Assembly: GCA_964057225.1 (NCBI GenBank)
Contig: OZ059895.1
Span: forward strand, 12,586,001 to 12,650,000
DNA: 64,000 bases
DNA from: Auanema rhodensis
Taxonomy: Eukaryota; Animalia; Nematoda
Reading direction: 5' to 3'
Position numbers and translations under genes: made by a program. This document shows positions 33,772 to 64,000 of this stretch, piece after piece. Under the pieces are notes generated by a model. That model did no database searches and was not told the DNA's origin. It saw nothing but the letters and a program-made list of their open reading frames with translations. The stretch's first letter is position 1, and each line of letters opens with the position of its first letter.

Positions 33772-34260
33772 TGTTACATACATATCTCAAAGGAAAGCAG
33801 CTGACCATGGCAGCTGCTATTATAAAACTAATGCAGATAGTTTTTAAGCAATTCTGAGAATATTCTAGATGCACTTTTTATAAGCTTTGTAACAATTTGT
33901 GTAAACTGAGTAGGAGTTGTATGGATATATAAACCTGAGTCCTCAAGACTCAGGCATCTCATTATCTCATTATCTTACTTTCTCTTTATCTTCTTTATAT
34001 TCTCTTTCTTAACTCTAGCTTTAATCTTTGTATAATTATATTATAATGCGAACAATAAACCTTTATATATTTCATCTCTTGTTTCTTATTTCACCTTACA
34101 TTACACACTTATATTCAAAATCATACTCATCTTCTCATAGTCTGTTTGGATCTCTCAACTTGGAACCATTGGGAATCCAAATGGAACGTGGAGGTTCCAC
34201 CGAGATCCTTCCTTTCGGACAGGATCTCGTAAAGGAACTCAAGCGCTACCGTCTACAACT
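33772..34260 (+). promoter_or_regulatory. Putative 5' LTR of element A (3' end not determinable)
   Basis: TG start, TATATAAA at ~33926, AATAAA at ~34054. There is no second copy and no recognisable PBS, so the end coordinate is a guess. Confidence 0.45.
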
Positions 34261-40049: not shown

Positions 40050-40265
40050 ACAACGGATGCTCCATTCAAACTATCATTTTCTAAATAAAGCCAAGCCACC
40101 TGATTTAATAGGAAGACTTTCTTATTTGTTTGCTGACGATATTTGTTGTCACAATAATTGACGATATTTGTTGTCACAATAATAATTTATTATTCATTTG
40201 TTGATGTTATTTATTCTCACAATAGTTTCTTTGTTTATGTAAGAGTATTCTTGGAAAAACCCTGT

Positions 40266-40347
40266 GATCAGGTGGCCGAGTGGTTAAGGCGATGGACTGC
40301 TAATCCATTGGGGTTTCCCCGCGTGAGTTCGAATCTCATCCTGATCG
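40266..40347 (+). tRNA. tRNA-Ser(GCT), first of 56 copies
   Basis: GATCAGG/CCTGATC acceptor stem, TGGCCGAGTGG A box, ATGGA-CTGCTAA-TCCAT anticodon arm, GGGG-TTT-CCCC long variable arm, GTTCGAATC B box, G discriminator. Confidence 0.97.
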
Positions 40348-43300: not shown

Positions 43301-46300
43301 AGTTCGAATCTCATCCTGATCGTTAGTTTTGTTTTTTATCACAACGGACGCTCCATTCAAACTATCATTTTCTAAATAAAGCCAAGCCACCTGATTCAAT
43401 AGAAAGACTTTATTATTCATTTGTTGACGTTATTTATTCTCACAATAATTTCTTTGTTTAAGTAAGAGTATTCTTGGAAAAACCCTGTGATCAGGTGGCC
43501 GAGTGGTTAAGGCGATAGACTGCTAATCCATTGGGGTTTCCCCGCGTGAGTTCGAATCTCATCCTGATCGTTAGTTTTGTTTTTTATGACAACGGATGCT
43601 CCATTCAAACTATCATTTTCTAAATAAAGCCAAGCCACCTGATTTAATAGGAAGACTATATTATTCATTTGTTGACGTTATTTATTCTCACAATAATTTC
43701 TTAGTTTATGTAAGAGTATTCTTGGAAAAACCCTGTGATCAGGTGGCCAAGTGGTTAAGGCGATGGACTGCTAATCCATTGCGGTTTCCCCGCGTGAGTT
43801 CGAATCTCATCCTGATCGTTAGTTTTGTTTTTTATGACAACGGATGCTCCATTCAAACTATCATTTTCTAAATAAAGCCAAGCCACCTGATTTAACAGGA
43901 AGACTTTCTTATTTGTTTGTTGACGATATTTGTTGTCACAATAATTTCTTTGTTTATGTAAGAGTATTCTTGGAAAAACCCTGTGATCAGGTGGCCGAGT
44001 GGTTAAGGCGATGGACTGCTAATCCATTGGGGTTTCCCCGCGTGAGTTCGAATCTCATCCTGATCGTTAGTTTTGTTTTTTATGACAACGGATGCTCCAT
44101 TCAAACTATCATTTTCTAAATAAAGCCAAGCCACCTGATTTAATAGGAAGACTATATTATTCATTTGTTGATGTTATTTATTCTCACAATAGTTTCTTTG
44201 TTTATGTAAGAGTATTCTTGGAAAAACCCTGTGATCAGGTGGCCGAGTGGTTAAGGCGATGGACTGCTAATCCATTGGGGTTTCCCCGCGTGAGTTCGAA
44301 TCTCATCCTGATCGTTAGTTTTGTTTTTTATCACATCGGATGCTCCATTCAAACTATCATTTTCTAAATAAAGCCAAGCCACCTGATTTAATAGAAAGAC
44401 TTTATTATTCATTTGTTGACGTTATTTATTCTCACAATAATTTCTTTGTTTAAGTAAGAGTATTCTTGGAAAAACCCTGTGATCAGGTGGCCGAGTGGTT
44501 AAGGCGATGGACTGCTAATCCATTGAGGTTTCCCCGCGTGAGTTCGAATCTCATCCTGATCGTTAGTTTTGTTTTTTATGACAACGGATGCTCCATTCAA
44601 ACTATCATTTTCTAAATAAAGCCAAGCCACCTGATTCAATAGAAAGACTTTATTATTCATTTGTTGACGTTATTTATTCTCACAATAATTTCTTTGTTTA
44701 AGTAAGAGTATTCTTGGAAAAACCCTGTGATCAGGTGGCCGAGTGGTTAAGGCGATAGACTGCTAATCCATTGGGGTTTCCCCGCGTGAGTTCGAATCTC
44801 ATCCTGATCGTTAGTTTTGTTTTTTATGACAACGGATGCTCCATTCAAACTATCATTTTCTAAATAAAGCCAAGCCACCTGATTTAATAGGAAGACTATA
44901 TTATTCATTTGTTGACGTTATTTATTCTCACAATAATTTCTTAGTTTATGTAAGAGTATTCTTGGAAAAACCCTGTGATCAGGTGGCCAAGTGGTTAAGG
45001 CGATGGACTGCTAATCCATTGCGGTTTCCCCGCGTGAGTTCGAATCTCATCCTGATCGTTAGTTTTGTTTTTTATGACAACGGATGCTCCATTCAAACTA
45101 TCATTTTCTAAATAAAGCCAAGCCACCTGATTTAACAGGAAGACTTTCTTATTTGTTTGTTGACGATATTTGTTGTCACAATAATTTCTTTGTTTAAGTA
45201 AGAGTATTCTTGGAAAAACCCTTTGATCAGGTGGCCGAGTGGTTAAGGCGATGGACTGCTAATCCATTGGGGTTTCCCCGCGTGAGTTCGAATCTCATCC
45301 TGATCGTTAGTTTTGTTTTTTATGACAACGGATGCTCCATTCAAACTATCATTTTCTAAATAAAGCCAAGCCACCTGATTTAATAGGAAGAATTTATTAT
45401 TTTTTTGTTGAAATTGTTTATTCTCACAATAATTTCTTTGTTTAAGTAAGAGTATTCTTGGAAAAACCCTGTGATCAGGTGGCCGAGTGGTTAAGGCGAT
45501 AGACTGCTAATCCATTGGGGTTTCCCCGCGTGAGTTCGAATCTCATCCTGATCGTTAGTTTTGTTTTTTATGACAACGGATGCTCCATTCAAACTATCAT
45601 TTTCTAAATAAAGCCAAGCCACCTGATTTAATAGGAAGACTATATTATTCATTTGTTGACGTTATTTATTCTCACAATAATTTCTTAGTTTATGTAAGAG
45701 TATTCTTGGAAAAACCCTGTGATCAGGTGGCCAAGTGGTTAAGGCGATGGACTGCTAATCCATTGCGGTTTCCCCGCGTGAGTTCGAATCTCATCCTGAT
45801 CGTTAGTTTTGTTTTTTATGACAACGGATGCTCCATTCAAACTATCATTTTCTAAATAAAGCCAAGCCACCTGATTTAACAGGAAGACTTTCTTATTTGT
45901 TTGTTGACGATATTTGTTGTCACAATAATTTCTTTGTTTAAGTAAGAGTATTCTTGGAAAAACCCTTTGATCAGGTGGCCGAGTGGTTAAGGCGATGGAC
46001 TGCTAATCCATTGGGGTTTCCCCGCGTGAGTTCGAATCTCATCCTGATCGTTAGTTTTGTTTTTTATGACAACGGATGCTCCATTCAAACTATCATTTTC
46101 TAAATAAAGCCAAGCCACCTGATTTAATAGGAAGAATTTATTATTTTTTTGTTGAAATTGTTTATTCTCACAATAATTTCTTTGTTTAAGTAAGAGTATT
46201 CTTGGAAAAACCCTGTGATCAGGTGGCCGAGTGGTTAAGGCGATGGACTGCTAATCCATTGGGGTTTCCCCGCGTGAGTTCTAATCCCATCCTGATCGTT

Positions 46301-49300
46301 AGTTTTGTTTTTTATGACAACGGATGCTCTATTCAAACTATCATTTTCTAAATAAAGCCAAGCCACCTGATTTAACAGGAAGACTTTCTTATTTGTTTGT
46401 TGACGATATTTGTTGTCACAATAATTTCTTTGTTTAAGTAAGAGTATTCTTGGAAAAACCCTGTGATCAGGTGGCCGAGTGGTTAAGGCGATGGACTGCT
46501 AATCCATTGGGGTTTCCCCGCGTGAGTTCGAATCTCATCCTGATCGTTAGTTTTGTTTTTTATGACAACGGATGCTCCATTCAAACTATCATTTTCTAAA
46601 TAAAGCCAAGCCACCTGATTTAATAGGAAGACTTTATTATTCATTTGTTGACGTTATTTATTCTCACAATAATTTCTTTGTTTAAGTAAGAGTATTCTTG
46701 GAAAAACCCTGTGATCAGGTGGCCGAGTGGTTAAGGCGATGGACTGCTAATCCATTGGGGTTTCCCCGCGTGAGTTCGAATCTCATCCTGATCGTTAATT
46801 TTGTTTTTTATCACAACGGACGCTCCATTCAAACTATCATTTTCTAAATAAAGCCAAGCCACCTGATTTAATAGGAAGACTATATTATTCATTTGTTGAC
46901 GTTATTTATTCTCACAATAATTTCTTTGTTTATGTAAGAGTATTCTTGGAAAAACCCTGTGATCAGGTGGCCGAGTGGTTAAGGCGATAGACTGCTAATC
47001 CATTGGGGTTTCCCCGCGTGAGTTCGAATCTCATCCTGATCGTTAGTTTTGTTTTTTATGACAACGGATGCTCCATTCAAACTATCATTTTCTAAATAAA
47101 GCCAAGCCACCTGATTTAATAGGAAGACTATATTATTCATTTGTTGATGTTATTTATTCTCACAATAGTTTCTTTGTTTATGTAAGAGTATTCTTGGAAA
47201 AACCCTGTGATCAGGTGGCCGAGTGGTTAAGGCGATGGACTGCTAATCCATTGGGGTTTCCCCGCGTGAGTTCGAATCTCATCCTGATCGTTAGTTTTGT
47301 TTTTTATGACAACGGATGCTCCATTCAAACTATCATTTTCTAAATAAAGCCAAGCCACCTGATTTAATAGGAAGACTATATTATTCATTTGTTGATGTTA
47401 TTTATTCTCACAATAGTTTCTTTGTTTATGTAAGAGTATTCTTGGAAAAACCCTGTGATCAGGTGGCCGAGTGGTTAAGGCGATGGACTGCTAATCCATT
47501 GGGGTTTCCCCGCGTGAGTTCGAATCTCATCCTGATCGTTAGTTTTGTTTTTTATCACATCGGATGCTCCATTCAAACTATCATTTTCTAAATAACGCCA
47601 AGCCACCTGATTTAATAGAAAGATTTTATTATTCATTTGTTGACGTTATTTATTCTCACAATAATTTCTTTGTTTAAGTAAGAGTATTCTTGGAAAAACC
47701 CTGTGATCAGGTGGCCGAGTGGTTAAGGCGATGGACTGCTAATCCATTGGGGTTTCCCCGCGTGAGTTCGAATCTCATCCTGATCGTTAATTTTGTTTTT
47801 TATCACAACGGAGGCTCCATTCAAACTATCATTTTCTAAATAAAGCCAAGCCACCTGATTTAATAGGAAGACTTTATTATTCATTTGTTGACGTTATTTA
47901 TTCTCACAATAATTTCTTTGTTTAAGTAAGAGTATTCTTGGAAAAACCCTGTGATCAGGTGGCCGAGTGGTTAAGGCGATGGACTGCTAATCCATTGGGG
48001 TTTCCCCGCGTGAGTTCGAATCTCATCCTGATCGTTAGTTTTGTTTTTTATGACAACGGATGCTCCATTCAAACTATCATTTTCTAAATAAAGCCAAGCC
48101 ACCTGATTTAATAGGAAGACTTTATTATTCATTTGTTGACGTTATTTATTCTCACAATAATTTCTTTGTTTAAGTAAGAGTATTCTTGGAAAAACCCTGT
48201 GATCAGGTGGCCGAGTGGTTAAGGCGATGGACTGCTAATCCATTGGGGTTTCCCCGCGTGAGTTCGAATCTCATCCTGATCGTTAATTTTGTTTTTTATC
48301 ACAACGGACGCTCCATTCAAACTATCATTTTCTAAATAAAGCCAAGCCACCTGATTTAATAGGAAGACTATATTATTCATTTGTTGACGTTATTTATTCT
48401 CACAATAATTTCTTTGTTTATGTAAGAGTATTCTTGGAAAAACCCTGTGATCAGGTGGCCGAGTGGTTAAGGCGATAGACTGCTAATCCATTGGGGTTTC
48501 CCCGCGTGAGTTCGAATCTCATCCTGATCGTTAGTTTTGTTTTTTATGACAACGGATGCTCCATTCAAACTATCATTTTCTAAATAAAGCCAAGCCACCT
48601 GATTTAATAGGAAGACTATATTATTCATTTGTTGATGTTATTTATTCTCACAATAGTTTCTTTGTTTATGTAAGAGTATTCTTGGAAAAACCCTGTGATC
48701 AGGTGGCCGAGTGGTTAAGGCGATGGACTGCTAATCCATTGGGGTTTCCCCGCGTGAGTTCGAATCTCATCCTGATCGTTAGTTTTGTTTTTTATGACAA
48801 CGGATGCTCCATTCAAACTATCATTTTCTAAATAAAGCCAAGCCACCTGATTTAATAGGAAGACTATATTATTCATTTGTTGATGTTATTTATTCTCACA
48901 ATAGTTTCTTTGTTTATGTAAGAGTATTCTTGGAAAAACCCTGTGATCAGGTGGCCGAGTGGTTAAGGCGATGGACTGCTAATCCATTGGGGTTTCCCCG
49001 CGTGAGTTCGAATCTCATCCTGATCGTTAGTTTTGTTTTTTATCACATCGGATGCTCCATTCAAACTATCATTTTCTAAATAACGCCAAGCCACCTGATT
49101 TAATAGAAAGATTTTATTATTCATTTGTTGACGTTATTTATTCTCACAATAATTTCTTTGTTTAAGTAAGAGTATTCTTGGAAAAATCCTGTGATCAGGT
49201 GGCCGAGTGGTTAAGGCGATGGACTGCTAATCCATTGGGGTTTCCCCGCGTGAGTTCGAATCTCATCCTGATCGTTAATTTTGTTTTTTATCACAACGGA

Positions 49301-52300
49301 GGCTCCATTCAAACTATCCTTTTCTAAATAAAGCCAAGCCACCTGATTCAATAGAAAGACTTTATTATTCATTTGTTGACGTTATTTATTCTCACAATAA
49401 TTTCTTTGTTTAAGTAAGAGTATTCTTGGAAAAACCCTGTGATCAGGTGGCCGAGTGGTTAAGGCGATAGACTGCTAATCCATTGGGGTTTCCCCGCGTG
49501 AGTTCGAATCTCATCCTGATCGTTAGTTTTGTTTTTTATGACAACGGATGCTCCATTCAAACTATCATTTTCTAAATAAAGCCAAGGAACCTGATTTAAT
49601 AGGAAGACTATATTATTCATTTGTTGACGTTATTTATTCTCACAATAATTTCTTTGTTTATGTAAGAGTATTCTTGGAAAAACCCTGTGATCAGGTGGCC
49701 GAGTGGTTGAGGCGATGGACTGCTAATCCATTGGGGTTTCCCCGCGTGAGTTCGAATCTCATCCTGATCGTTAGTTTTGTTTTTTATGACAACGGATGCT
49801 CCATTCAAACTATCATTTTCTAAATAAAACCAAGCCACCTGATTTAATAGGAAGACTATATTATTCATTTGTTGATGTTATTTATTCTCACAATAGTTTC
49901 TTTGTTTATGTAAGAGTATTCTTGGAAAAACCCTGTGATCAGGTGGCCGAGTGGTTAAGGCGATGGACTGCTAATCCATTGGGGTTTCCCCGCGTGAGTT
50001 CGAATCTCATCCTGATCGTTAGTCTTGTTTTTTATGACAACGGATGCTCCATTCAGACTATCATTTTCTAAATAAAGCCAAGCCACCTGATTTAATAGGA
50101 AGACTTTTTTATTTGTTTGTTGACGATATTTGTTGTCACAATAATTTCTTTGTTTAAGTAAGAGTATTCTTGGAAAAACCTTTTGATCAGGTGGCCGAGT
50201 GGTTAAGGCGATGGACTGCTAATCCATTGGGGTTTCCCCGCGTGAGTTCGAATCTCATCCTGATCGTTAGTTTTGTTTTTTATGACAACGGATGCTCCAT
50301 TCAAACTATCATTTTCTAAATAAAGCCAAGCCACCTGATTTAATAGGAAGAATTTATTATTTATTTGTTGAAATTGTTTATTCTCACAATAATTTCTTTG
50401 TTTAAGTAAGAGTATTCTTGGAAAAACCCTGTGATCAGGTGGCCGAGTGGTTAAGGCGATGGACTGCTAATCCATTGGGGTTTCCCCGCGTGAGTTCGAA
50501 TCTCATCCTGATCGTTAGTTTTGTTTTTTATGACAACGGATGCTCCATTCAAACTATCATTTTCTAAATAAAGCCAAGCCACCTGATTCAATAGAAAGAC
50601 TATATTATTCATTTGTTGACGTTATTTATTCTCACAATAATTTCTTTGTTTAAGTAAGAGTATTTTTTGAAAAACCCTGTGATCAGGTGGCCGAGTGGTT
50701 AAGGCGATGGACTGCTAATCCATTGGGGTTTCCCCGCGTGAGTTCGAATCTCATCCTGATCGTTAGTTTTGTTTTTTATGACAACGGATGCTCCATTCAA
50801 ACTATCATTTTCTAAATAAAGCCAAGCCACCCGATTTAATAGGAAGAATTTATTTTTTATTTGTTGAAATTATTTATTCTCACAATAATTTCTTTGTTTA
50901 AGTAAGAGTATTCTTGGAAAACCCTGTGATCAGGTGGCCGAGTGGTTAAGGCGATGGACTGCTAATCCATTGGGGTTTCCCCGCGTGAGTTCGAATCTCA
51001 TCCTGATCGTTAATTTTGTTTTTTATGACAACGGATGCTCCATTCAAACTATCATTTTCTAAATAAAGCCAAGCCACCTGATTTAATAGGAAGACTTTTT
51101 TATTTGTTTGTTGACGATATTTGTTGTCACAATAATTTCTTTGTTTAAGTAAGAGTATTCTTGGAAAAACCCTGTGATCAGGTGGCCGAGTGGTTAAGGC
51201 GATGAACTGCTAATCCATTGGGGTTTCCCCGCGTGAGTTCGAATCTCATCCTGATCGTTAATTTTGTTTTTTATCACAACGGAGGCTCCATTCAAACTAT
51301 CCTTTTCTAAATAAAGCCAAGCCACCTGATTTAATAAAAAGATTTTATTATTCATTTGTTGACGTTATTTATTCTCACAATAATTTCTTTGTTTAAGTAA
51401 GAGTATTCTTGGAAAAACCCTGTGATCAGGTGGCCGAGTGGTTAAGGCGATGGACTGCTAATCCATTGGGGTTTCCCCGCGTGAGTTCGAATCTCATCCT
51501 GATCGTTAGTTTTGTTTTTTATGACAACGGATGCTCCATTCAAACTATCATTTTCTAAATAAAGCCAAGCCACCCGATTTAATAGGAAGAATTTATTTTT
51601 TATTTGTTGAAATTATTTATTCTCACAATAATTTCTTTGTTTAAGTAAGAGTATTCTTGGAAAACCCTGTGATCAGGTGGCCGAGTGGTTAAGGCGATGG
51701 ACTGCTAATCCATTGGGGTTTCCCCGCGTGAGTTCGAATCTCATCCTGATCGTTAATTTTGTTTTTTATGACAACGGATGCTCCATTCAAACTATCATTT
51801 TCTAAATAAAGCCAAGCCACCTGATTTAATAGGAAGACTTTTTTATTTGTTTGTTGACGATATTTGTTGTCACAATAATTTCTTTGTTTAAGTAAGAGTA
51901 TTCTTGGAAAAACCCTGTGATCAGGTGGCCGAGTGGTTAAGGCGATGAACTGCTAATCCATTGGGGTTTCCCCGCGTGAGTTCGAATCTCATCCTGATCG
52001 TTAATTTTGTTTTTTATCACAACGGAGGCTCCATTCAAACTATCCTTTTCTAAATAAAGCCAAGCCACCTGATTTAATAAAAAGATTTTATTATTCATTT
52101 GTTGACGTTATTTATTCTCACAATAATTTCTTTGTTTAAGTAAGAGTATTCTTGGAAAAACCCTGTGATCAGGTGGCCGAGTGGTTAAGGCGATGGACTG
52201 CTAATCCATTGGGGTTTCCCCGCGTGAGTTCGAATCTCATCCTGATCGTTAGTTTTGTTTTTTATCACATCGGATGCTCCATTCAAACTATCATTTTCTA

Positions 52301-53902
52301 AATAAAGCCAAGCCACCTGATTTAATAGAAAGATTTTATTATTCATTTGTTGACGTTATTTATTCTCACAATAATTTCTTTGTTTAAGTAAGAGTATTCT
52401 TGGAAAAACCCTGTGATCAGGTGGCCGAGTGGTTAAGGCGATGGACTGCTAATCCATTGGGGTTTCCCCGCGTGAGTTCGAATCTCATCCTGATCGTTAA
52501 TTTTGTTTTTTATCACAACGGAGGCTCCATTCAAACTATCCTTTTCTAAATAAAGCCAAGCCACCTGATTTAATAGAAAGATTTTATTATTCATTTGTTG
52601 ACGTTATTTATTCTCACAATAATTTCTTTGTTTAAGTAAGAGTATTCTTGGAAAAACCCTGTGATCAGGTGGCCGAGTGGTTAAGGCGATGGACTGCTAA
52701 TCCATTGGGGTTTCCCCGCGTGAGTTCGAATCTCATCCTGATCGTTAGTTTTGTTTTTTATGACAACGGATGCTCCATTCAAACTATCATTTTCTAAATA
52801 AAGCCAAGCCACCTGATTTAATAGGAAGACTATATTATTCATTTGTTGATGTTATTTATTCTCACAATAGTTTCTTTGTTTATGTAAGAGTATTCTTGGA
52901 AAAACCCTGTGATCAGGTGGCCGAGTGGTTAAGGCGATGGACTGCTAATCCATTGGGGTTTCCCCGCGTGAGTTCGAATCTCATCCTGATCGTTAGTTTT
53001 GTTTTTTATCACATCGGATGCTCCATTCAAACTATCATTTTCTAAATAAAGCCAAGCCACCTGATTTAATAGAAAGATTTTATTATTCATTTGTTGACGT
53101 TATTTATTCTCACAATAATTTCTTTGTTTAAGTAAGAGTATTCTTGGAAAAACCCTGTGATCAGGTGGCCGAGTGGTTAAGGCGATGGACTGCTAATCCA
53201 TTGGGGTTTCCCCGCGTGAGTTCGAATCTCATCCTGATCGTTAATTTTGTTTTTTATCACAACGGAGGCTCCATTCAAACTATCCTTTTCTAAATAAAGC
53301 CAAGCCACCTGATTTAATAGAAAGATTTTATTATTCATTTGTTGACGTTATTTATTCTCACAATAATTTCTTTGTTTAAGTAAGAGTATTCTTGGAAAAA
53401 CCCTGTGATCAGGTGGCCGAGTGGTTAAGGCGATGGACTGCTAATCCATTGGGGTTTCCCCGCGTGAGTTCGAATCTCATCCTGATCGTTAATTTTGTTT
53501 TTTATCACAACGGAGGCTCCATTCAAACTATCCTTTTCTAAATAAAGCCAAGCCACCTGATTTAATAGAAAGATTTTATTATTCATTTGTTGACGTTATT
53601 TATTCTCACAATAATTTCTTTGTTTAAGTAAGAGTATTCTTGGAAAAACCCTGTGATCAGGTGGCCGAGTGGTTAAGGCGATGGACTGCTAATCCATTGG
53701 GGTTTCCCCGCGTGAGTTCGAATCTCATCCTGATCGTTAATTTTGTTTTTTATCACAACGGAGGCTCCATTCAAACTATCCTTTTCTAAATAAAGCCAAG
53801 CCACCTGATTTAATAGAAAGATTTTATTATTCATTTGTTGACGTTATTTATTCTCACAATAATTTCTTTGTTTAAGTAAGAGTATTCTTGGAAAAACCCT
53901 GT

Positions 53903-53984
53903 GATCAGGTGGCCGAGTGGTTAAGGCGATGGACTGCTAATCCATTGGGGTTTCCCCGCGTGAGTTCGAATCTCATCCTGATCG
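53903..53984 (+). tRNA. tRNA-Ser(GCT), last of 56 copies
   Basis: Same sequence as 40266-40347. Confidence 0.97.
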
Positions 53985-54145
53985 TTAGTTTTGTTTTTTA
54001 TGACAACGGATGCTCCATTCAAACTATCATTTTCTAAATAAAGCCAAGCCACCTGATTTAATAGGAAGACTATATTATTCATTTGTTGATGTTATTTATT
54101 CTCACAATAGTTTCTTTGTTTATGTAAGAGTATTCTTGGAAAAAC

Positions 54146-54741
54146 CGTTACTTATTGTTTCTTCCCGTCTTTTCATGGTCGGAAGATATATGTACTTCTA
54201 CCTTGTTCCTTAGGTAGGCAGACCCGAACGTCCCGATTTCCTTATTAAGACAAATACTTAAAGAGAAAAGGATTCATTATCAGATAACAAGGAAATACAA
54301 TATATGAATTACATTAAGAAAGAATATAAAGAGATATAATAAAGTATTAAATAGAGTATATATATAGATGATATAGAGATGAGACTCACATGACTATAAG
54401 ACAACCTATCTGGGTTAGGCCAGAAGCAAGAGTGCCATGTGTGTCCCATGTTGTAGGCGGGGCTTGTTCAGGCTCCCGCTATTTGAATAGCGCGCACATG
54501 TTTACCATGTGCTTGCAGATGTGACATCCCCCCACCTTAAAAAGTTGAACGTCCTCGTTCAAAAACAAAATAAATTAATTCACTTTTTAAGATAGTTGGA
54601 TGTTGGAAAAAAAAAATCATGGTGTAGTCGATAAAAAATAATGTATACAATACGATTTGAAAGTTTAGCTATTGTCTCTTCAAGTTTGTTGAATTCAAAA
54701 TGTAGTATCGAATAGATTCTATTCCATTCACTTGAGTAGTG
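54146..54741 (-). mobile_element. Fragment of an element-B-family copy: 3' LTR (54146-54526), PPT and ~215 bp of 3' UTR
   Basis: Near-identical to 57151-57735 apart from SNPs and a ~12-bp indel. PPT AAGGTGGGGGGA lies directly before TGTCAC on the minus strand. The internal end is fused to the middle of a tRNA-Thr gene via a TG microhomology. Confidence 0.9.
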
Positions 54742-54784
54742 TCTAGTAAACAGAAGGTCGCTGGTTCGATTCCAGCATGAGGCA
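54740..54784 (+). pseudogene. 5'-truncated tRNA-Thr(AGT)
   Basis: tgtctagtaaacagaaggtcgctggttcgattccagcatgaggca is the 3' part of the gene only. Confidence 0.85.
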
Positions 54785-54956
54785 TCGTTTTAGACTTTTT
54801 CAAACTATTTTGAGGATTAATTCGTGCTTCTCGAAGCTTTTACTTCAGGTTACATCTTCTCTTATTCATTCAAATGAAATGTTTCAATTGAATATGTAAA
54901 CGCATTGTTGAAAGTGACTAAGAGATTATTATCGACAAAAGAAAATAACTTATCAA

Positions 54957-55028
54957 GCCTCATTGGCTCAGGGGCAGAGCGTCTGTCTAGTAAACAGAAG
55001 GTCGCTGGTTCGATTCCAGCATGAGGCA
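54957..55028 (+). tRNA. tRNA-Thr(AGT)
   Basis: GCCTCAT/ATGAGGC acceptor stem, TCTGT-CTAGTAA-ACAGA anticodon arm, GGTTCGATTCC, A discriminator. Confidence 0.95.
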
Positions 55029-55200
55029 TCGTTTTAGACTTTTTCAAACTATTTTGAGGATTAATTCGTGCTTCTTGAAGCTTTTACTTCAGGTTACATC
55101 TTCTCTTATTCATTCGAATGAAATATTTTACTTCAATACGGAGCAGTATTGTTAAAAGTGACAAAGTGATTATTATCGACAAATGAAAACAACTTATCAA

Positions 55201-55272
55201 GCCTCATTGGCTCAGGGGCAGAACGTCTGTCTAGTAAAAAGAAGGTCGCTGGTTCGATTCCAGCATGAGGCA
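55201..55272 (+). tRNA. tRNA-Thr(AGT) variant (D-stem and anticodon-stem mismatches)
   Basis: gaacgtc and agtaaaaaga. Confidence 0.75.
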
Positions 55273-55444
55273 TCGTTTTGGACTTTTTCAAACTATTTTG
55301 AGGATTAATTCGTGCTTCTTGAAGCTTTTACTTCAGGTTACATCTTCTCTTATTCATTCGAATGAAATATTTTACTTCAATACGGAGCAGTATTGTTAAA
55401 AGTGACAAAGTGATTATTATCGACAAATGAAAACAACTTATCAA

Positions 55445-55516
55445 GCCTCATTGGCTCAGGGGCAGAGCGTCTGTCTAGTAAACAGAAGGTCGCTGGTTCG
55501 ATTCCAGCATGAGGCA
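55445..55516 (+). tRNA. tRNA-Thr(AGT)
   Basis: Consensus copy. Confidence 0.95.
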
Positions 55517-55688
55517 TCGTTTTAGACTTTTTCAAACTATTTTGAGGATTAATTCGTGCTTCTCGAAGCTTTTACTTCAGATTACATCTTCTCTTATTCA
55601 TTCAAATGAAATGTTTCAATTGAATATGTAAACGCATTGTTGAAAGTGACTAAGAGATTATTATCGACAAAAGAAAATAACTTATCAA

Positions 55689-55760
55689 GCCTCATTGGCT
55701 CAGGGGCAGAGCGTCTGTCTAGTAAAGAGAAGGTCGCTGGTTCGATTCCAGCATGAGGCA
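55689..55760 (+). tRNA. tRNA-Thr(AGT) variant (anticodon-stem mismatch)
   Basis: agtaaagaga. Confidence 0.8.
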
Positions 55761-55932
55761 TCGTTTTAGACTTTTTCAAACTATTTTGAGGATTAATTCG
55801 TGCTTCTCGAAGCTTTTACTTCAGGTTACATCTTCTCTTATTCATTCAAATGAAATGTTTCAATTGAATATGTAAACGCATTGTTGAAAGTGACTAAGAG
55901 ATTATAATCGAGAAATGAGAATAACTTATCAA

Positions 55933-56004
55933 GCCTCATTGGCTCAGGGGCAGAGCGTCTGTCTAGTAAACAGAAGGTCGCTGGTTCGATTCCAGCATGA
56001 GGCA
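55933..56004 (+). tRNA. tRNA-Thr(AGT)
   Basis: Consensus copy. Confidence 0.95.
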
Positions 56005-56176
56005 TCGTTTTAGACTTTTTCAAACTATTTTGAGGATTAATTCGTGCTTCTCGAAGCTTTTAATTCAGGTTACATCTTCTCTTATTCATTCAAATGAAAT
56101 GTTTCAATTGAATATGTAAACGCATTGTTGAAAGTGACTAAGAGATTATAATCGAGAAATGAGAATAACTTATCAA

Positions 56177-56248
56177 GCCTCATTGGCTCAGGGGCAGAGC
56201 GTCTGTCTAGTAAACAGAAGGTCGCTGGTTCGATTCCAGCATGAGGCA
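56177..56248 (+). tRNA. tRNA-Thr(AGT)
   Basis: Consensus copy. Confidence 0.95.
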
Positions 56249-56420
56249 TCGTTTTAGACTTTTTCAAACCATTTTGAGGATTAATTCGTGCTTCTCGAAG
56301 CTTTTACTTCAGGTTACATCTTCTCTTATTCATTCAAATGAAATGTTTCAATTGAATATGTAAACGCATTGTTGAAAGTGACTAAGAGATTATTATCGAC
56401 AAAAGAAAATAACTTATCAA

Positions 56421-56492
56421 GCCTCATTGGCTCAGGGGCAGAGCGTCTGTCTAGTAAACAGAAGGTCGCTGGTTCGATTCCAGCATGAGGCA
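56421..56492 (+). tRNA. tRNA-Thr(AGT)
   Basis: Consensus copy. Confidence 0.95.
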
Positions 56493-56664
56493 TCGTTTTA
56501 GACTTTTTCAAACTATTTTGAGGATTAATTCGTGCTTCTTGAAGCTTTTACTTCAGGTTACATCTTCTCTTATTCATTCGAATGAAATATTTTACTTCAA
56601 TACGGAGCAGTATTGTTAAAAGTGACAAAGTGATTATTATCGACAAATGAAAACAACTTATCAA

Positions 56665-56736
56665 GCCTCATTGGCTCAGGGGCAGAGCGTCTGTCTAGTA
56701 AAAAGAAGGTCGCTGGTTCGATTCCAGCATGAGGCA
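56665..56736 (+). tRNA. tRNA-Thr(AGT) variant (anticodon-stem mismatch)
   Basis: agtaaaaaga. Confidence 0.8.
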
Positions 56737-56908
56737 TCGTTTTGGACTTTTTCAAACTATTTTGAGGATTAATTCGTGCTTCTTGAAGCTTTTACTTCAG
56801 GTTACATCTTCTCTTATTCATTCGAATGAAATATTTTACTTCAATACGGAGCAGTATTGTTAAAAGTGACAAAGTGATTATTATCGACAAATGAAAACAA
56901 CTTATCAA

Positions 56909-56980
56909 GCCTCATTGGCTCAGGGGCAGAGCGTCTGTCTAGTAAACAGAAGGTCGCTGGTTCGATTCCAGCATGAGGCA
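56909..56980 (+). tRNA. tRNA-Thr(AGT)
   Basis: Consensus copy. Confidence 0.95.
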
Positions 56981-57150
56981 TCGTTTTAGACTTTCTCAAA
57001 CTATTTTGAGGATTAATTCGTGCTTCTTGAAGCTTTTACTTCAGGTTACATCTTCTCTTATTCATTCAAAAAAAAATGTTTCAATTGAATATGTACACGC
57101 ATTGTTGAAAGTGACTAAGAGATTATAATCGAGAAATGAGAATAACTTAT

Positions 57151-57519
57151 CGTTACATATTGTTTCTTCCCGTCTTTTCATGGTCGGAAGATATATGTAC
57201 TTCTACCTTGTTCCTTAGGTAGGCAGACCCGAACGCCCCGATTTCCTTATTAAGACAAATACTTAAAGAGAAAAGGATTCATTATCAGATAACAAGAAAA
57301 TACACATTAAGAAAGAATATAAAGAGATATAATGAAGTATTAAATAGAGTATATATATAGATGATATAGAGATGAGACTCACATGGCTATAAGACAACCT
57401 ATCTGGGTTAGGCCAGAAGCAAGAGTGCCATGTGTGTCCCATGTTGTAGGCGGGGCTTGTTCAGGCTCCCGCTATTTGAATAACGCGCACATGTTTACCA
57501 TGTGCTAGCAGATGTGACA
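57151..57519 (-). repeat. 3' LTR of element B (369 bp)
   Basis: Starts TGTCAC right after the PPT, ends GTAAC(G) at the tRNA-spacer junction; second copy at 54146-54526. Confidence 0.9.
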
Positions 57520-57531
57520 TCCCCCCACCTT
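57520..57531 (-). promoter_or_regulatory. Polypurine tract
   Basis: AAGGTGGGGGGA abutting the LTR TG. Confidence 0.88.
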
Positions 57532-58123
57532 AAAAAGTTGAACGTCCTCGTTCACAAAAAAAAAATTAATTAATTCACTTTTTAAGATAGTTGGGTGTTG
57601 GAAAAAAAAATCATGGTGTAGTGGATAAAAAAAAATGTATACAATACGATTTGAAAGTTTAGCTATCGTCTCTTCAAGTTTGTTGAATTCGAAATGTAGT
57701 ATCGAGTAGATTCTATTCCATTCACTTGAGTAGTGAAATGCTTGCAAACGAGAGCTTTGCTTCTAAACCATTCGACTGTGATATAGTCGTTCATTTTCTC
57801 GAGTTGTACAGGTACGGTGTTACCCTGAGAATAGGTCGAGCCCGTTCTGTACAAAAAAATGAAAACTCGTTTAACCCGTATGACTAATGTCCATAAGGTG
57901 AATACAAGTAATGATTAAGCATAAAAAATAGCAAAATTCACAAGAGAATGTTGAAAAAAAATCTACTCAATGAGAGTTGGAGTAATAAAACAAACTTTTG
58001 TAAAACAATAGCAGACTTCTCAGAGAAAATCAATCAACAACAAAGAAGTGGTACAATCAGAAATGGCACAAAATAAAATAAAAAAAATTTCAACAATTTG
58101 ATTTTGTTAAAAAAAAACTACCT

Positions 58124-61100
58124 TCAAGAAATTGTGATAACCGGAATAGATGTTGTCCGTTGGTAAGGTTTGACGAAGTCCTTGTGTACTCTTCTGCTTT
58201 TTCCTTTATCTGTTTGAACCACGACGAAAGATCTTTGAACTGCTGTAACTAAATAAGGCCCTTCGAATGAAGGTGTTAGTTTGTTTCGAGTAGAATTCAC
58301 TTTTATCATAACTAAGTCATTAACCTGAATTTCTTTATTTTGTGTTCTATTTCGTGTATTGTACCGTTGTTCATTCTTCTTTGTGCATGTTTCAATTCTA
58401 TCTTTTACTATATTAGATGTGCTTTCATTTTGTATTAGCGATCTATTGACAAAATCTTCTGTAGGATTGGCTGGTTCTTCAGTTTGAAGATTATTTCCAG
58501 GCAATTGATGGTCAATAGGAAGTCTTGCATCCCGACCAAATAATACAACATATGGACTAATAGATGTTGATGAGTTTGGTAACGTATTGATCGCAAACAT
58601 AACTTTAGGTAGGTGTATATCCCAGTTAGTTTGTTGTTCATTCACGAATGAAGAGAGAGCTTCTTCTAAAGTTCTATGAAGTCTCTCCACTTGTCCATTA
58701 GCATTTTTATGATATGGTAGCGTAGTAGTGTGTTCAATTCCAAATTGTTTACACATAGCTTGAAATTCAGATGACAAAAAGCTACTACCATTATCGGTTA
58801 TCATACTCATTGGTGGTCCATATATGAAAACAAATCTAATTACAAACGCTTTTGTGATTTCAGTAGCCGTTTGTGTTATTAATGGGCAAGTTGTTCCCCA
58901 TTTACTAAAAGCGTCTTGAATACTCAAGATGTATCGATGTCCATCATTAGTGCGAGGTGAAGGACCTAGTATATCTACATGAATACGATCAAATGGCTTT
59001 TCGGGTACAACAAATCTTCCCATAGGTTGAATATACGATTGGTGTGGGTTAGATTTCCTACTTGCACATTTTGTACAACGATTAATAAATTCAGTTATTT
59101 GTGGAACCATATTAGTCCAAAAGAATCGTCGTCGAATCGCATCAGTAGTTTTATTTATACCTAGGTGTGCACCAATTTTGGAATCTTCATGAAAAAACTT
59201 GATAACAACATCAGTTATTTTGTCGTTACGAGGCAAAATAATAGATGGTTTCAAATAATTTTTCGCTTGTTTTGCATGTAATATGCCTTCTCGTTCTTCA
59301 TACCGGTCTGATATATTAGCCGGACAGTTATCATTATTAATTTGAGAAAGTGCTTCGCGAATCCAGGGAACTCCAGCTTGAACTTTCCGTATTTCTTCAC
59401 AATTTAGTTGGTCAATAGAAGAAATAGTTGTGATATGAGCAATAAAAGCATCAACAGGTTTTACTTTGTCCTTTGGTTTAGTAGGACGACTGTCATTTGC
59501 TTCGTTTCCTATATACCTGGAGAGAGCATCACAGACACTGTTTAATTTGCCAGGACGATATTCAATCTTTATGTTGAAATCTTGTATCATTAGTTGATAC
59601 TTGGCTAATCTACCTATGAGATCTTTACGCGACATTAAACTGGTTAATGGTCGGTGATCTGTGATAACTGTGGTAGGTACTCCTAATACATAGGTACGGA
59701 ATTGTTGAAGAGCAAAGACTAAACCGAGTGCTTCAACTTCAATAGGAGGATATTTCCGTTCCGCTGGAGTCAACTTTCTACTAGCGAACGCAATCGGGTG
59801 TAATGGAGAATTTTTCTCTGCTGATTGCAATAAAACTGCTCCCACAGCGATCATACTGCCATCACTTTCTATAACAAAAGGTTGGTCTGCTTTAGGAGGT
59901 TTCAGTACAGGGGCAGTACACAGTAATGTTTTTAAAGTTTCAAATGCGTCTGCATGTTCCGATTTCCACTCAAAAGGAGTATCCTTATGTGTTAACTTAT
60001 ACAATGGCTCAGCTATTCCGGCATAATTTTGAATAAACCGTCGAAAATAGTTAGTCATACCTAGAAAGGATCTGACAGCCGTAACTGTGCTTGGATTTGG
60101 AAATTCGGAAACAGCCTGTATTTTAGCAGGATCTGGTTTAACACCATTTCTACCTATTATAAAACCCAAAAACTTTACTTCAGTGGCTGCAAAGCAACAT
60201 TTAGATAACTTAATTTTTAACCCTAGTTCAGTGACCTTTTTCAGCACTTCTTGTATATCTCTTAAATGTTCTTCAGCTGAGTTCGAAATTATTAGCAAAT
60301 CATCTAGATATACAAACAGTTTGCATCTAACAAGAGATTGCAAGTATCGTACTGCGGATTGAAAAGTGTGTGGCGCTCCACACAATCCCATAGGCATTCG
60401 GCAATACTGATAGGTACCTGATGGAGTGGTAAAAGCAGTTAAGTATCTATCTGAGCGTTTCAACGGTATTTGGAAGAAACCAGAAATGAGATCAAAATTC
60501 GAAAAGAACTGAGCTCCAGCCGCTAAGTCTATGATATCAGGAATGTGTGGGATGCTGTATGTTTGTTTCTTAGTAACACTATTCAATGCTCTAAAGTCAG
60601 TAACGAACCGGAAAGAATTATCTTTCTTTTTCACAAGAACAACCGGACTAGTGAAAGTAGCCGTCGAATTTTCGATTATACCTTGCGACAACATTTCTTT
60701 CACTTGCCGTTCTACTTCTTCTTGCTTACCCAATGGTACTCTGTAAGATCTACTTTTTGGAAAATCCATATCAGATCTTATAGGAATGGCATGTTCAACT
60801 GGTCCGCAAAAGAGACCAATATTATGATCATGGTTGAAAAATGCCGTTTGGTTTTCCTTAATGATTGTGATCAGATTTTTCTTCATTTTATGAGACAGAG
60901 TGCAAGAATTGAAGTTCAAATCATCCAAAAGATGCTGAGGAAAAGTTGGTAACTTATCTTCCCAATCAGCTTCAGGTGGAACATAATCGTTCATAATTTC
61001 TTTAGATGCTATAAGTCCTGAACCAATGTGGTCATTTTTATTAATTTTAATTGGCTTTGAAGAATTGTTTGATACTACCATAGTAATAGGAAAAGGTCCT

Positions 61101-62830
61101 ATGGCGGCATCTGGAATTGATATAGGACCTGTGCTAGATTTTAAAAGAGCATATTGATCAAAATCTAATTCTGGTCCTGTTTGCAAAGATATGTGGGAGG
61201 TACTATGTGGTGGAACTGTTACTGTGGACAAACTTATGATATTTACTGTTTTAGTTGTGGTTTTATATGCAAAACAACCAGGTTTTACTAAGGGTGTTTC
61301 CATATTACCAACAATCAACTTTCCTTTACATAGTTTTAATGTAGTAAATATCTCTCTTTCTTCCAACGTACACATAAAATCAGTACCAAGTAACATTTGT
61401 CCTGGACAGTCATTGTCTTCAGATATTAAAAATTCGTGTTCCACTTGGTAACCTGCTATACCCACATCTAACTTGCATTTTCCCACAAAGCGAAACTCTG
61501 ATCCATTTGCAGTGGATGCAGATTTAGAATATTTTGTAAAATATTGTCTTCCAATATATGCCAATGTGGAGAACGGAATATATGAGACCGTAGCTCCAGA
61601 ATCCCATAATGCTAACAGTCCTCTACCTTCAATGTCAATATGAACAAACGGTAACATGTGTCCATTTTTCTTTGTTGTTGTGTGACATACAAAAGGTATG
61701 GCTAAAGGAATGTAAGTTATTATGGTGGGAAAATAGCTCCGCATCAATTCATCACTAACTGTTTCATGAATCTCATCTCCCTCAAGTGGTGGAGCTGTTG
61801 GGCTCAACATGATATGGTTTATTTTTAACATAGAAGTAGGGGAGAGATAACATTTTATAGTGAAATATAATGCTATCATTAGACATAATATCAGAGTTAT
61901 ACAACCGATGGTAATGAGTGTTCGTTCAATTGAACCTATACAAAAGTCAATGAACAGATCCCAATTGGAGAAAACAATTTTCCTGGCATCTCTTATAAGT
62001 TTACTTCCTTTGAAGATGAAAGAGGAAATTTGAGGCCAATCACGTGAACGAGAAATTACGCGGAGAAGATCATGGTGAGGTGAAGTAGATAAACTATAAC
62101 CATAAGTTAATCCAATAGATAGGGCTAAGGATTTTTCAGTCGAATTTTCAAACAAATTCCGCCCTGTGAATCGAAGTTTACTCAATTCAGCATAATGATC
62201 ATGTTTTTCTGAATGAATACTATCTACTTTATGTGTGTCACCTTTATAATCTCTCCATGTTCCATTTTCATACCAAATTTCTGTCTCTTTGTGTTCACAA
62301 TTGATCTCATGTCCTTCAGTGCTCAAATCGTAGCTATCGATAGGAGCAAAGAATAATTGTTTATCGTGTGTTAAAACAGGGGTCTCTGCATAACATTTAT
62401 CATTGTAAGAATGATTACGATAAATGAAATGTGGTTCTATTTCCTGACAAGTTGTTATTTTTAAAACATTTCTTCCAACAAATCGGGCAACGATATCATC
62501 CCGCTGAAGCATAGCTCGTACTCCTATTGTAGGATGTATACGTAATATAGCTTGCCAGCTTTTTACAGTTTCCATTTGAGATTTACAGATGGTATGAAAC
62601 TGTTGATGAAATTCGTCAATTATGGAGAGACGCGCTTTCTCAAACCCATAATTCAACTTATTATCTATTATCGTTTTAGTTTTATGCTCTGATTTGTGGA
62701 GAACATTGTCATATACTTCTGCTACATACAACTCTCGACCTCTCTCGTACGCATTAGGGGTAGGAGTTGTTAAACTACGAATTGTAGTTTTGGTGGAAGT
62801 TATTGGGGTTACAGTAGTATGCTGTACCAT
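58124..62830 (-). CDS. pol: Env(C-terminal)-TM-Pol polyprotein (aspartic protease, RT, RNase H, integrase with GPY/F)
   Basis: 1568-aa ORF. Glycoprotein C-terminal half; TM TLITIGCITLILCLMIALYFTI (~61856-61921); LWDSGAT (61601); SPVVLVKKKD...DFRALN, DLISGFFQI, MPMGL, YLDD (60299-60310); RH ESDGS...E...TDHRPL...DALSR; IN H-x7-H...CTKC, IHVDILGP, TDNG, GQVER, GPY. No chromodomain. Confidence 0.95.
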   Translation of the reverse strand: MVQHTTVTPITSTKTTIRSLTTPTPNAYERGRELYVAEVYDNVLHKSEHKTKTIIDNKLNYGFEKARLSIIDEFHQQFHTICKSQMETVKSWQAILRIHPTIGVRAMLQRDDIVARFVGRNVLKITTCQEIEPHFIYRNHSYNDKCYAETPVLTHDKQLFFAPIDSYDLSTEGHEINCEHKETEIWYENGTWRDYKGDTHKVDSIHSEKHDHYAELSKLRFTGRNLFENSTEKSLALSIGLTYGYSLSTSPHHDLLRVISRSRDWPQISSFIFKGSKLIRDARKIVFSNWDLFIDFCIGSIERTLITIGCITLILCLMIALYFTIKCYLSPTSMLKINHIMLSPTAPPLEGDEIHETVSDELMRSYFPTIITYIPLAIPFVCHTTTKKNGHMLPFVHIDIEGRGLLALWDSGATVSYIPFSTLAYIGRQYFTKYSKSASTANGSEFRFVGKCKLDVGIAGYQVEHEFLISEDNDCPGQMLLGTDFMCTLEEREIFTTLKLCKGKLIVGNMETPLVKPGCFAYKTTTKTVNIISLSTVTVPPHSTSHISLQTGPELDFDQYALLKSSTGPISIPDAAIGPFPITMVVSNNSSKPIKINKNDHIGSGLIASKEIMNDYVPPEADWEDKLPTFPQHLLDDLNFNSCTLSHKMKKNLITIIKENQTAFFNHDHNIGLFCGPVEHAIPIRSDMDFPKSRSYRVPLGKQEEVERQVKEMLSQGIIENSTATFTSPVVLVKKKDNSFRFVTDFRALNSVTKKQTYSIPHIPDIIDLAAGAQFFSNFDLISGFFQIPLKRSDRYLTAFTTPSGTYQYCRMPMGLCGAPHTFQSAVRYLQSLVRCKLFVYLDDLLIISNSAEEHLRDIQEVLKKVTELGLKIKLSKCCFAATEVKFLGFIIGRNGVKPDPAKIQAVSEFPNPSTVTAVRSFLGMTNYFRRFIQNYAGIAEPLYKLTHKDTPFEWKSEHADAFETLKTLLCTAPVLKPPKADQPFVIESDGSMIAVGAVLLQSAEKNSPLHPIAFASRKLTPAERKYPPIEVEALGLVFALQQFRTYVLGVPTTVITDHRPLTSLMSRKDLIGRLAKYQLMIQDFNIKIEYRPGKLNSVCDALSRYIGNEANDSRPTKPKDKVKPVDAFIAHITTISSIDQLNCEEIRKVQAGVPWIREALSQINNDNCPANISDRYEEREGILHAKQAKNYLKPSIILPRNDKITDVVIKFFHEDSKIGAHLGINKTTDAIRRRFFWTNMVPQITEFINRCTKCASRKSNPHQSYIQPMGRFVVPEKPFDRIHVDILGPSPRTNDGHRYILSIQDAFSKWGTTCPLITQTATEITKAFVIRFVFIYGPPMSMITDNGSSFLSSEFQAMCKQFGIEHTTTLPYHKNANGQVERLHRTLEEALSSFVNEQQTNWDIHLPKVMFAINTLPNSSTSISPYVVLFGRDARLPIDHQLPGNNLQTEEPANPTEDFVNRSLIQNESTSNIVKDRIETCTKKNEQRYNTRNRTQNKEIQVNDLVMIKVNSTRNKLTPSFEGPYLVTAVQRSFVVVQTDKGKSRRVHKDFVKPYQRTTSIPVITIS

Positions 62831-62874
62831 ATTTTTATCAGTTGTGATTTGAGTTTTAACCCAACTTATGAATT

Positions 62875-63999
62875 CTAAAACTTCTGTTTTATTGAATTAG
62901 GATTTTCCTGTGGGTATTCGATGGACTGTGGAGGAAATCCATAAAATGCTGTACTATTCTTTGTATAAAGGTTGTGATAGTCAGGCAGCTTGGATATAAT
63001 TGCTAAATCTTGCTCTTGGTTGTTTCTAACAGTAGCATCAGCTTTTTGTTGTCGACTGACTTGCATGTCACGAGATATTTGTTCTTTTCCCGATTGTTGT
63101 TGGATCATAAATAACATGCCTTGAGCAGTTGCAATAATTTCAGATTGATTCATATTTCCACTGCGTGGTAATATAGATGGATATAAGGCTCTTGCCAACT
63201 GTTCAATTGATGGAACTGTTTGTGTACCATCAAGAATTGTGGCTTGATATACTACTGCGTGAGCCATTCCTCGAAAGAAATCTTCTATGGTTGTTGTAGA
63301 TTTCATCAAAGATCTTTTTAACCGAGGAACTTCTATACGACGAGCTACTTGAGTGATAAGATCATCCAATTTCATGCTATTAATCACCTGTCTAGTAGCC
63401 AGTTTAATTTCCTCTATACCCATACATTGTAAAATCAAAAGATTGGGGTCTTTGAAATTATTAGACTTTGCCCAGTTAGTTATGTGATCTTTTGTCAATC
63501 CTAAACTAACAATTGTGTCAATGAACAGTGGATTATCTATCGCGAATTGGAGCAAACTCTCATAAGATGATGTAGCTGCATATCTCATATATTTTGCGTA
63601 AAACTTAGTGATAGATGCAGATCCAAAAATGAAAGTAGGTCTTAGAAATGGAAACGCATATGGTTGGGATTTCGCATTAACAAAAAGATAATCATCACTG
63701 AAAGAGCGATGTTTTTGAGGTAATGCATTACGTTTATTTCTGCGTCTATCAGCATTAAGCAAAGTATTGGAAAGATCAAGCAAATTATAAACACGGGGAT
63801 ATGCTGTGAATCGGATAATTGCCTCAGAAGATGATTCAAAAACAGCGAATTCGAAACAAGATTGAACGTGAGCGGATGTGGAATGATTTTGGAGAACAAA
63901 AGCGCTTTCAATAGAGTGAACTAGAAGAATATGATCACCCAACATGGCGGAGAAGGGGCCAAGTTTTTGATAGTGACAGACAACTGATAGGATAGGTGG
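62875..63999 (-). CDS. env: Env middle part (open to the window edge); out of frame with the downstream env-pol ORF
   Basis: PPILSVVCHYQKLGPFSAMLGDHILLVHSIESAFVL aligns with element A PPLEKHSCSYTSLGSHEVFISEDTILIPGIQSAFIL; furin-like RRRNKR at 63730-63747; ends ...FYGFPP...KF*. Confidence 0.85.
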   Translation of the reverse strand, partial: PPILSVVCHYQKLGPFSAMLGDHILLVHSIESAFVLQNHSTSAHVQSCFEFAVFESSSEAIIRFTAYPRVYNLLDLSNTLLNADRRRNKRNALPQKHRSFSDDYLFVNAKSQPYAFPFLRPTFIFGSASITKFYAKYMRYAATSSYESLLQFAIDNPLFIDTIVSLGLTKDHITNWAKSNNFKDPNLLILQCMGIEEIKLATRQVINSMKLDDLITQVARRIEVPRLKRSLMKSTTTIEDFFRGMAHAVVYQATILDGTQTVPSIEQLARALYPSILPRSGNMNQSEIIATAQGMLFMIQQQSGKEQISRDMQVSRQQKADATVRNNQEQDLAIISKLPDYHNLYTKNSTAFYGFPPQSIEYPQENPNSIKQKF

Positions 64000-64000
64000 T

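Follow-up and report, generated by a model that had tools for sequence, protein, structure and literature searches.

Retroelement pieces within Pol III gene arrays

The 64-kb stretch of Auanema rhodensis contig OZ059895.1 analysed in this study (hereafter the window, numbered from its first letter) is occupied almost entirely by RNA polymerase III (Pol III) gene arrays. The arrays are interrupted by three retroelement pieces, one of which is a fragment containing a long terminal repeat (LTR) and part of a 3' untranslated region (UTR):

33772–40049 (+): element A, a gag-env piece with no pol in the window
54146–54741 (-): LTR + 3' UTR fragment; a second family-B LTR, 95% identical to that of element B
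57151 to beyond 64000 (-): element B, an env-pol piece

Elements A and B are in our judgement probably broken copies of two families of Ty3/gypsy retroelements, which combine the gene order gag-env-pol with an envelope protein (Env) of the herpesvirus glycoprotein B (gB) type, and whose intact relatives encode one polyprotein predicted to cross the membrane of the endoplasmic reticulum (ER) twice.

Structure of elements B and A

The following features were recognized in element B (TM, transmembrane; PR, protease; RT, reverse transcriptase; RH, RNase H; IN, integrase; aa, amino acids; ORF, open reading frame):

57151–57519 (-): 3' LTR; outer end 2 nt upstream of the expected next tRNA-Thr gene start
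57520–57531 (-): polypurine tract preceding the 3' LTR
58124–62896 (-): stop-free frame of 1590 aa; Env C-half, TM, tail, PR, RT, RH, IN
58709–59218 (-): IN zinc-binding and core domains (Pfam)
59576–59968 (-): RH (Pfam)
60155–60634 (-): RT with YLDD (Pfam; closest solved structure, Ty3 RT)
61373–61642 (-): aspartic PR with DSG (Pfam)
61790–61801 (-): PTAP, a late-domain-like motif in the predicted cytosolic TM-PR linker; the sole PTAP of this ORF
61862–61918 (-): single predicted TM helix (mean Kyte-Doolittle value 2.6)
62246–62674 (-): Env C-half; corresponds to the long helix and crown of a class III fusogen (PF24664, PF00606)
62875–62896 (-): frame break inside env
62878–63729 (-): domain of about 280 aa inserted into the Env cleavage loop; the inserts of element A and of the related protein P0003 are homologous to it
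63730–63741 (-): furin-type site R-x-K-R
63742–63999 (-): end of the Env N-half; the frame continues past the window edge

A first-pass annotation had described a Cys-rich glycoprotein running in frame, through one TM helix, into PR-RT-RH-IN, and our analysis upheld this. Within the 1590-aa frame Pfam placed (i) PF24664 (Monjiviricetes_fusion) at aa 75–217 (E 1.8e-7; 29.9 bits, cut-off 27), (ii) PF00606 (gB) at aa 79–170, below its cut-off (E 2.8e-4), and (iii) PR, RT, RH and IN in gypsy order downstream of Env; the frame contains one 19-aa hydrophobic segment, at aa 327–345. A GPY motif follows the IN domains at aa 1546, and no chromodomain was listed by Pfam for this frame. What had been left out is the break at 62875–62896: the 5' part of env (63999–62875) lies in a different frame from the remainder (62896–58124), whose first ATG is at 62830.

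Among solved structures, the RT of element B is closest to that of Ty3 (E 1.6e-47; next, 2.5e-30). This margin of 17 orders of magnitude and the PR-RT-RH-IN order identify a Ty3/gypsy element. Pfam listed no BEL/Pao families for the window proteins, and a BEL/Pao element with env 3' of IN was ruled out, since Env precedes PR and Pol is of the gypsy type. An RT tree of 27 rows, with relatives taken from the protein search, grouped element B with P0025 and P0005 (support 100/100).

Element A contains the 5' portion of such an element, with a primer-binding site (PBS) next to its LTR:

33772–34188 (+): 5' LTR, beginning 54 nt upstream of the position at which the 5S unit of the array starts
34189–34200 (+): PBS, exact complement of the tRNA-Gln 12-mer of Clat_errantivirus_4 and Ctro_errantivirus_1
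36183–36452 (+): Gag capsid part, PF03732 (Pfam)
37071–37127 (+): internal signal-peptide-like segment between Gag and Env (hydropathy)
37128–37874 (+): Env N-half; its predicted model matched domains I/II of gB
37875–37886 (+): furin-type site RSRR
37887–39168 (+): inserted domain, frame break (38569–38660) and Thr/Ser-rich linker (55% T+S)
39376–40049 (+): Env C-half, after the in-frame stop (PF24664, E 1.1e-9)

In the frame 35196–38660 (+), Retrotrans_gag (aa 330–419) precedes a basic stretch rich in N, Q and Y that lacks a zinc knuckle; next come the signal-like segment (aa 626–644) and a Cys-rich ectodomain. The annotated passage from Gag through a signal into the N-terminal part of Env was therefore confirmed, but the description had passed over both the break at 38569–38660 and the stop at 39373–39375. 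Element A is ended by the tRNA-Ser array near position 40049, ahead of any TM segment or pol. Its leader (34201–35360, about 1.2 kb from the PBS to the first ATG) contains a poly-C run and a 25-bp repeat.

The 3' LTR and polypurine tract are present in element B, the 5' LTR and PBS in element A, and both LTRs of one copy are nowhere found together in the window. The PBS of element A also follows family-B LTRs in contigs of runs X6, X8 and X12, and is identical to the complement of a Caenorhabditis tRNA-Gln 12-mer listed by Chary and Hayashi (eLife 2026; PMC13524379, cited here throughout for portions of its text and for Supplementary file 1). In both LTR families the U5 (inner) end reads ...AACG instead of the usual CA, and the U3 end begins with TGT (57151, 54146, 34188).

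Relationship of Env to herpesvirus gB

The annotated alignment of the two Env proteins over several hundred residues was reproduced (A1 823–1147 with B1 1–355: 22% identity, E 3e-21, 362 columns; A3 4–161 with B2 113–271: 37% identity, E 5e-30, 165 columns). However, approximately 270 of the aligned residues fall in the domain inserted into the cleavage loop, i.e. outside the fusogen core.

The assignment of Env to class III fusogens of the gB/chuvirus type, made by eye in the first-pass annotation, is supported by profile and model comparisons in addition to PF24664. A profile of 35 Env C-halves matched 54 sequences at E ≤ 1 (best 6e-10), all of them herpesvirus gB or gB gene names. The predicted model of the Env N-half of element A, built on a 41-row alignment and confident over approximately residues 20–240, matched gB in the Foldseek comparison that the annotation had proposed (E 4.6e-12) and in VIA-align (Z of about 11, root-mean-square deviation of about 4 Å over about 215 residues, model residues 30–247). 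Its two best matches among viral models were the glycoproteins of Beihai rhabdo-like virus 3 and Nyavirus midwayense. The single-sequence fold was unusable (predicted local distance difference test, pLDDT, 36), and the insert part of the alignment-based model was unreliable (pLDDT mostly <50). A long helix at model residues 276–330 was rejected as a probable artefact, the conserved C-half columns of relatives having been aligned onto insert positions.

The cleavage loop varies greatly in size. It spans 7–503 aa in the 72 relatives with both Env halves placed, exceeding 150 aa in 26 and reaching at most 60 aa in 39. The 31 inserts longer than 80 aa (including those of A and B) form 17 BLAST clusters, one of which unites A, B and P0003; unrelated inserts of 150–500 aa occupy the same loop across relatives. 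No family or fold was found for the A/B/P0003 insert with Pfam, the ESM Atlas, word-index search or structure modelling: Pfam gave two weak, implausible matches for the B insert and none for that of A, the ESM Atlas no usable match for the A Env N-half with its insert or for the B insert, and the word-index search with the insert no match. Word-index protein searches with the Env region of element B (near or longer lengths) were likewise blank, which reflects limits of sensitivity, since Env relatives were recovered by the HMMER library search. If these loop domains are indeed swappable, they could set cell tropism.

Gene order and predicted topology in relatives

The HMMER search with the Env C-half yielded 168 representatives, and the counts given here rest on the best 150 of them. 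Domains were called with the window domains as queries; Pfam, applied to the longest of the 150 and to some of the best matches (42 in all), agreed with these calls and exposed one false match (P0087).

The env gene, joined to pol in element B and to gag in element A, stands between the two in relatives: Gag, Env and some Pol occur in one chain in 9/150, five of which extend through IN. Pol follows Env in 37 of the 40 relatives that have Env plus RT or IN, the other three having IN first, so an env placed 3' of pol, which the annotation had named as one observation that would overturn its reading, is not the rule. P0003 carries the insert shared with A and B and both Env halves in one frame. 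P0012, P0062 and P0133 are examples of natural relatives consisting of a single chain. As side observations, P0012 has duplicated protease and zinc-binding domains, P0055 several protease-like stretches, and P0059 an RNA recognition motif between Gag and Env.

These data bear on the proposal that the window copies are rearranged relics, in which a BEL/Pao piece with env, inserted into a gypsy element, mimics the gag-env-pol order. The same Env family does occur 3' of IN in P0123 and P0142, both BEL/Pao by Pfam, IN also precedes Env in P0120 and P0122, and both window copies are broken and lie in unstable tandem arrays. However, Env and PR of element B are read in a single frame, neither an LTR nor a junction separates the two, the Env-before-Pol order prevails among relatives, and the gag-env-pol layout is published for 36 nematode elements (PMC13524379). 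We consider this explanation very improbable and largely refuted.

The hydropathy of the relatives is consistent with the predicted arrangement Gag(cytosol)-signal-Env(ER lumen)-TM-Pol(cytosol). A signal-like segment was observed within 32 aa of the Env start in 33/37 relatives and in 1/37 control windows (relatives with >150 residues preceding Env, possibly including P0123, which the script left unclassed), and the Env-PR interval contains one TM-like segment in 37 of 38 relatives and none in the remaining one. This two-pass topology is therefore likely to be a trait of the lineage, as the first-pass annotation had proposed for the layout common to the two families. The census attaches numbers to the prediction and makes the layout testable.

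Several points weigh against this reading. As already recognized in the annotation, no copy in the window holds all three genes: Gag is not visible in element B, whose 5' half lies beyond 64000, and pol is absent from element A. The topology rests on Kyte-Doolittle windows of predicted proteins that are related by descent; these relatives come without genomic context, and their gene models could be skipping breaks. A further such point is the proximity of the A and B breaks to the same Env motif, described below.

A metagenome scan with the element B pol returned two ordinary env-less gag-pol elements. One contig (L002, 305–10228) carries tandem identical env-less gypsy copies with a single gag-pol stop of the read-through type.

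One polyprotein or separate products

Most likely, a single polyprotein would be translated from the genomic RNA. Gag would be made in the cytosol; the internal signal would thread Env into the ER lumen, where signal peptidase would free its N-terminus; and the TM segment would stop transfer, returning PR-RT-RH-IN to the cytosol. Furin would cleave the Env loop and the element's own protease would release the enzymes. Such an arrangement would tether Pol to the budding membrane and couple Gag, Env and Pol in a 1:1:1 ratio. More tentatively, PTAP in the Env tail may recruit ESCRT-I (endosomal sorting complex required for transport I) for budding, and the family-B integrase may aim at Pol III gene starts as that of Ty3 does.

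Alternatively, the gene order may be real and the products made apart, through a spliced env RNA, a programmed frameshift or read-through in env; most Gag would then lack Env-Pol, and there would be no 1:1:1 membrane-spanning polyprotein. As a rule, retroelements require Gag in large excess over Pol. The frame breaks of A (38569–38660) and B (62875–62896) are both no more than about 30 codons away from one and the same Env motif, which lies where the loop insert ends. In addition, contigs of two DNA runs join the protease start to the integrase end (58325–61659), the sides of these joins being only 25 and 30 letters long. The shifts in A and B run in opposite directions, however; this region of P0003 is read in a single frame; the contigs of all four sequencing runs compared, from four studies, differ in nucleotide sequence from the window at the B break; and in nine relatives Gag, Env and Pol are united in one chain. 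We regard separate products as improbable, and a programmed frameshift in env was ranked low.

For the single-polyprotein reading, the break of element B appears to be confined to this copy or to the assembly of it (a lesion or an assembly error), which is the simplest interpretation because the insert of P0003 is in one frame and the contigs of all four runs differ there. The coinciding sites in A and B perhaps reflect an indel-prone, A-rich linker. The protease-integrase joins possibly represent pol-less gag-env derivatives of family B; a third run showed a loose end at the protease side. Among the RNA data sets listed, none contained the region, a result that does not bear on expression.

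The Env tail and a possible budding route

Tail motifs were counted in the 60 aa following the TM segment of 84 relatives, with lumenal controls and shuffles. P[TS]AP was present in 8/84 tails and in 0/84 lumenal controls (shuffle mean 0.25, maximum 3), and outside the tails it occurs four times in 110,038 aa. The PTAP of element B lies 21 aa after the TM segment. Of the eight carriers, which are about 35% identical across the Env core, six have the motif 28–32 aa after the TM segment. In retroviral budding PTAP binds TSG101, and the Env-tail motif suggests a possible route by which particles could bud. Two results tell against this route: 76 of the 84 tails are without P[TS]AP, and PPxY and YPxL, like YxxL, were not enriched over shuffles.

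Env might instead serve as a cell-cell fusogen or as a membrane anchor by which cytosolic cores are carried between germline and soma, PTAP being a sorting signal or a chance occurrence. The small share of P[TS]AP carriers fits this view, as does the presence of R-x-K/R-R in only 33/72 loops, and the transmission mechanism is described as unknown for most such elements (PMC13524379). On the other hand, P[TS]AP lies far above shuffles and at a similar distance from the membrane in most carriers, and Env has kept the class III fold and its cysteines. We consider the fusogen or anchor role unlikely, albeit less so than the production of separate products.

Host arrays in the window

The 5S rRNA units span approximately 1–33770 and include 24 full 5S matches. 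Units of 399 and 529 bp were distinguished, some containing a full 5S gene and others a 5' fragment of it, and the array is inverted around 25400–28300. Between the inverted arms lies a 2.9-kb non-array segment (25415–28315) with AT-rich, intron-like breaks, which may be a DNA transposon or a host gene remnant; its 158-aa frame (27284–27760) is without a Pfam match. The region 40186–57151 consists of tandem arrays of single tRNA genes, with 56 tRNA-Ser (GCT) in units of 248 bp and nine tRNA-Thr (AGT) in units of 244 bp.

LTR positions next to tRNA and 5S genes

Two family-B LTRs could be examined at their junction with the host arrays. The outer end of one (57151) is 2 nt upstream of the mature tRNA-Thr start (flank match to the array 34/40), and that of the other lies as follows:

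54146 (-): second family-B LTR outer end, 4 nt upstream of the mature start of the expected next tRNA-Ser gene (flank match 38/40)

At both junctions the last LTR base matches the host, which leaves the exact end ambiguous by one base. Were insertion random within the arrays, the joint chance of both ends falling ≤6 nt upstream of a gene start would be about 6e-4, for a window set post hoc. The LTR of element A starts 54 nt ahead of the 5S-unit start position (flank match 39/40). Among read contigs over the LTR (13 loose ends among them) no third insertion site was clearly identified.

We lean, with modest confidence, towards true targeting of Pol III gene starts by the family-B integrase. This is weakened by three circumstances: (i) there are two junctions, in one window made up mostly of Pol III arrays, (ii) the 6-nt limit was chosen after the junctions had been seen, and (iii) element A lies at another offset, 54 nt. 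The competing explanation attributes the tRNA- and 5S-adjacent positions to array dynamics, i.e. recombination and survival in gene-poor arrays. It draws on the dominance of such arrays in the window, on the low number of junctions, and on the observation that array DNA cuts short both element A and the 54146 copy; it does not readily account for two LTRs, 5% apart in sequence, one of which abuts a tRNA-Thr unit and the other a tRNA-Ser unit, at nearly equal offset and in the same orientation. We hold array dynamics to be a serious possibility, but the less probable of the two.

Taken as a whole, the proposal that an animal env-bearing Ty3/gypsy element both targets Pol III gene starts and buds by ESCRT, via PTAP in the Env tail of one Gag-Env-Pol polyprotein, with the furin loop acting as a cassette into which unrelated domains of 150–500 aa can be swapped, is tentative, and we consider it rather doubtful in its complete form.

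Comparison with known systems

The gag-env-pol layout, whose novelty the first-pass annotation had implied, is already in print. According to Chary and Hayashi, gB-type ENV is the only kind carried by the elements of Nematoda, Bryozoa and Platyhelminthes, which have the order GAG-ENV-POL and do not form one clade; they credit the nematode gene order to Sacco et al. 2022 (PMC13524379). Their "ancient errantiviruses" of nematodes, such as Clat_errantivirus_4 and Ctro_errantivirus_1, have in common with A and B the gene order, Ty3/gypsy Pol, gB-type Env between a signal and a TM segment, and the tRNA-Gln PBS. Of the 36 nematode rows in Supplementary file 1, eight are typed as tRNA-Gln PBS and two have the identical 12-mer (PMC13524379). 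The main text, in the portions covered here, contains none of the terms "polyprotein", "fused", "single ORF", "late domain", "ESCRT", "budding", "target site" and "polymerase III", and these portions, figures excluded, do not present the Pol III-adjacent sites, tail motif and loop inserts of families A and B (PMC13524379). The endogenous retroviruses of nematodes (NERV; Sacco et al. 2022, J Gen Virol 103:1739, as reported in PMC13524379) are Metaviridae with env before pol and a glycoprotein captured from an RNA virus, as in A and B. The best viral structure matches of the A Env N-half are G proteins of the nyamivirus type. The NERV elements are said to have a continuous gag-env-pro-pol ORF and a nyamivirus-like Env.

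BEL/Pao elements with a gB/chuvirus-type env (Tas, mosquito BEL) share the Env family PF24664, also in frame with the retroelement polyprotein. Unlike in A and B, their Env follows IN, Pol is of the Peptidase_A17 type, and Pol does not lie behind a membrane anchor. Cer1 (PMC10309623) was not a match, and the literature search turned up nothing of relevance on an envelope in planarian "Burro".

In yeasts and amoebae, Ty3 and its relatives are known to show Pol III targeting (PMC5911963; PMC13269885; both cited in part). The literature search, for which Repbase and subscription journals were outside reach, found no nematode case of a Pol III-targeting retroelement, and the words "nematode", "metazoa" and "elegans" do not occur in the review PMC5911963. 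The positions at tRNA gene starts, the P[TS]AP motif in the Env tail and the unrelated loop inserts were not found in print and may be new.

Elements A and B are thus two added families of a published layout. Family B resembles, in the position of its LTR ends, Ty3 of Saccharomyces cerevisiae, Tyl3, Ylt1, Tca8 and DGLT-A, which insert exactly at Pol III gene starts or within a few bases of them (PMC5911963, in part), and Ty3 has the solved RT closest to its own. Ty3 and its Pol III-targeting relatives differ in having no env and in their yeast and amoeba hosts, and the comparison rests on the two family-B junctions. If tRNA-adjacent junctions hold genome-wide, Ty3-like Pol III targeting would extend from yeasts and amoebae to an env-bearing retroelement of an animal.

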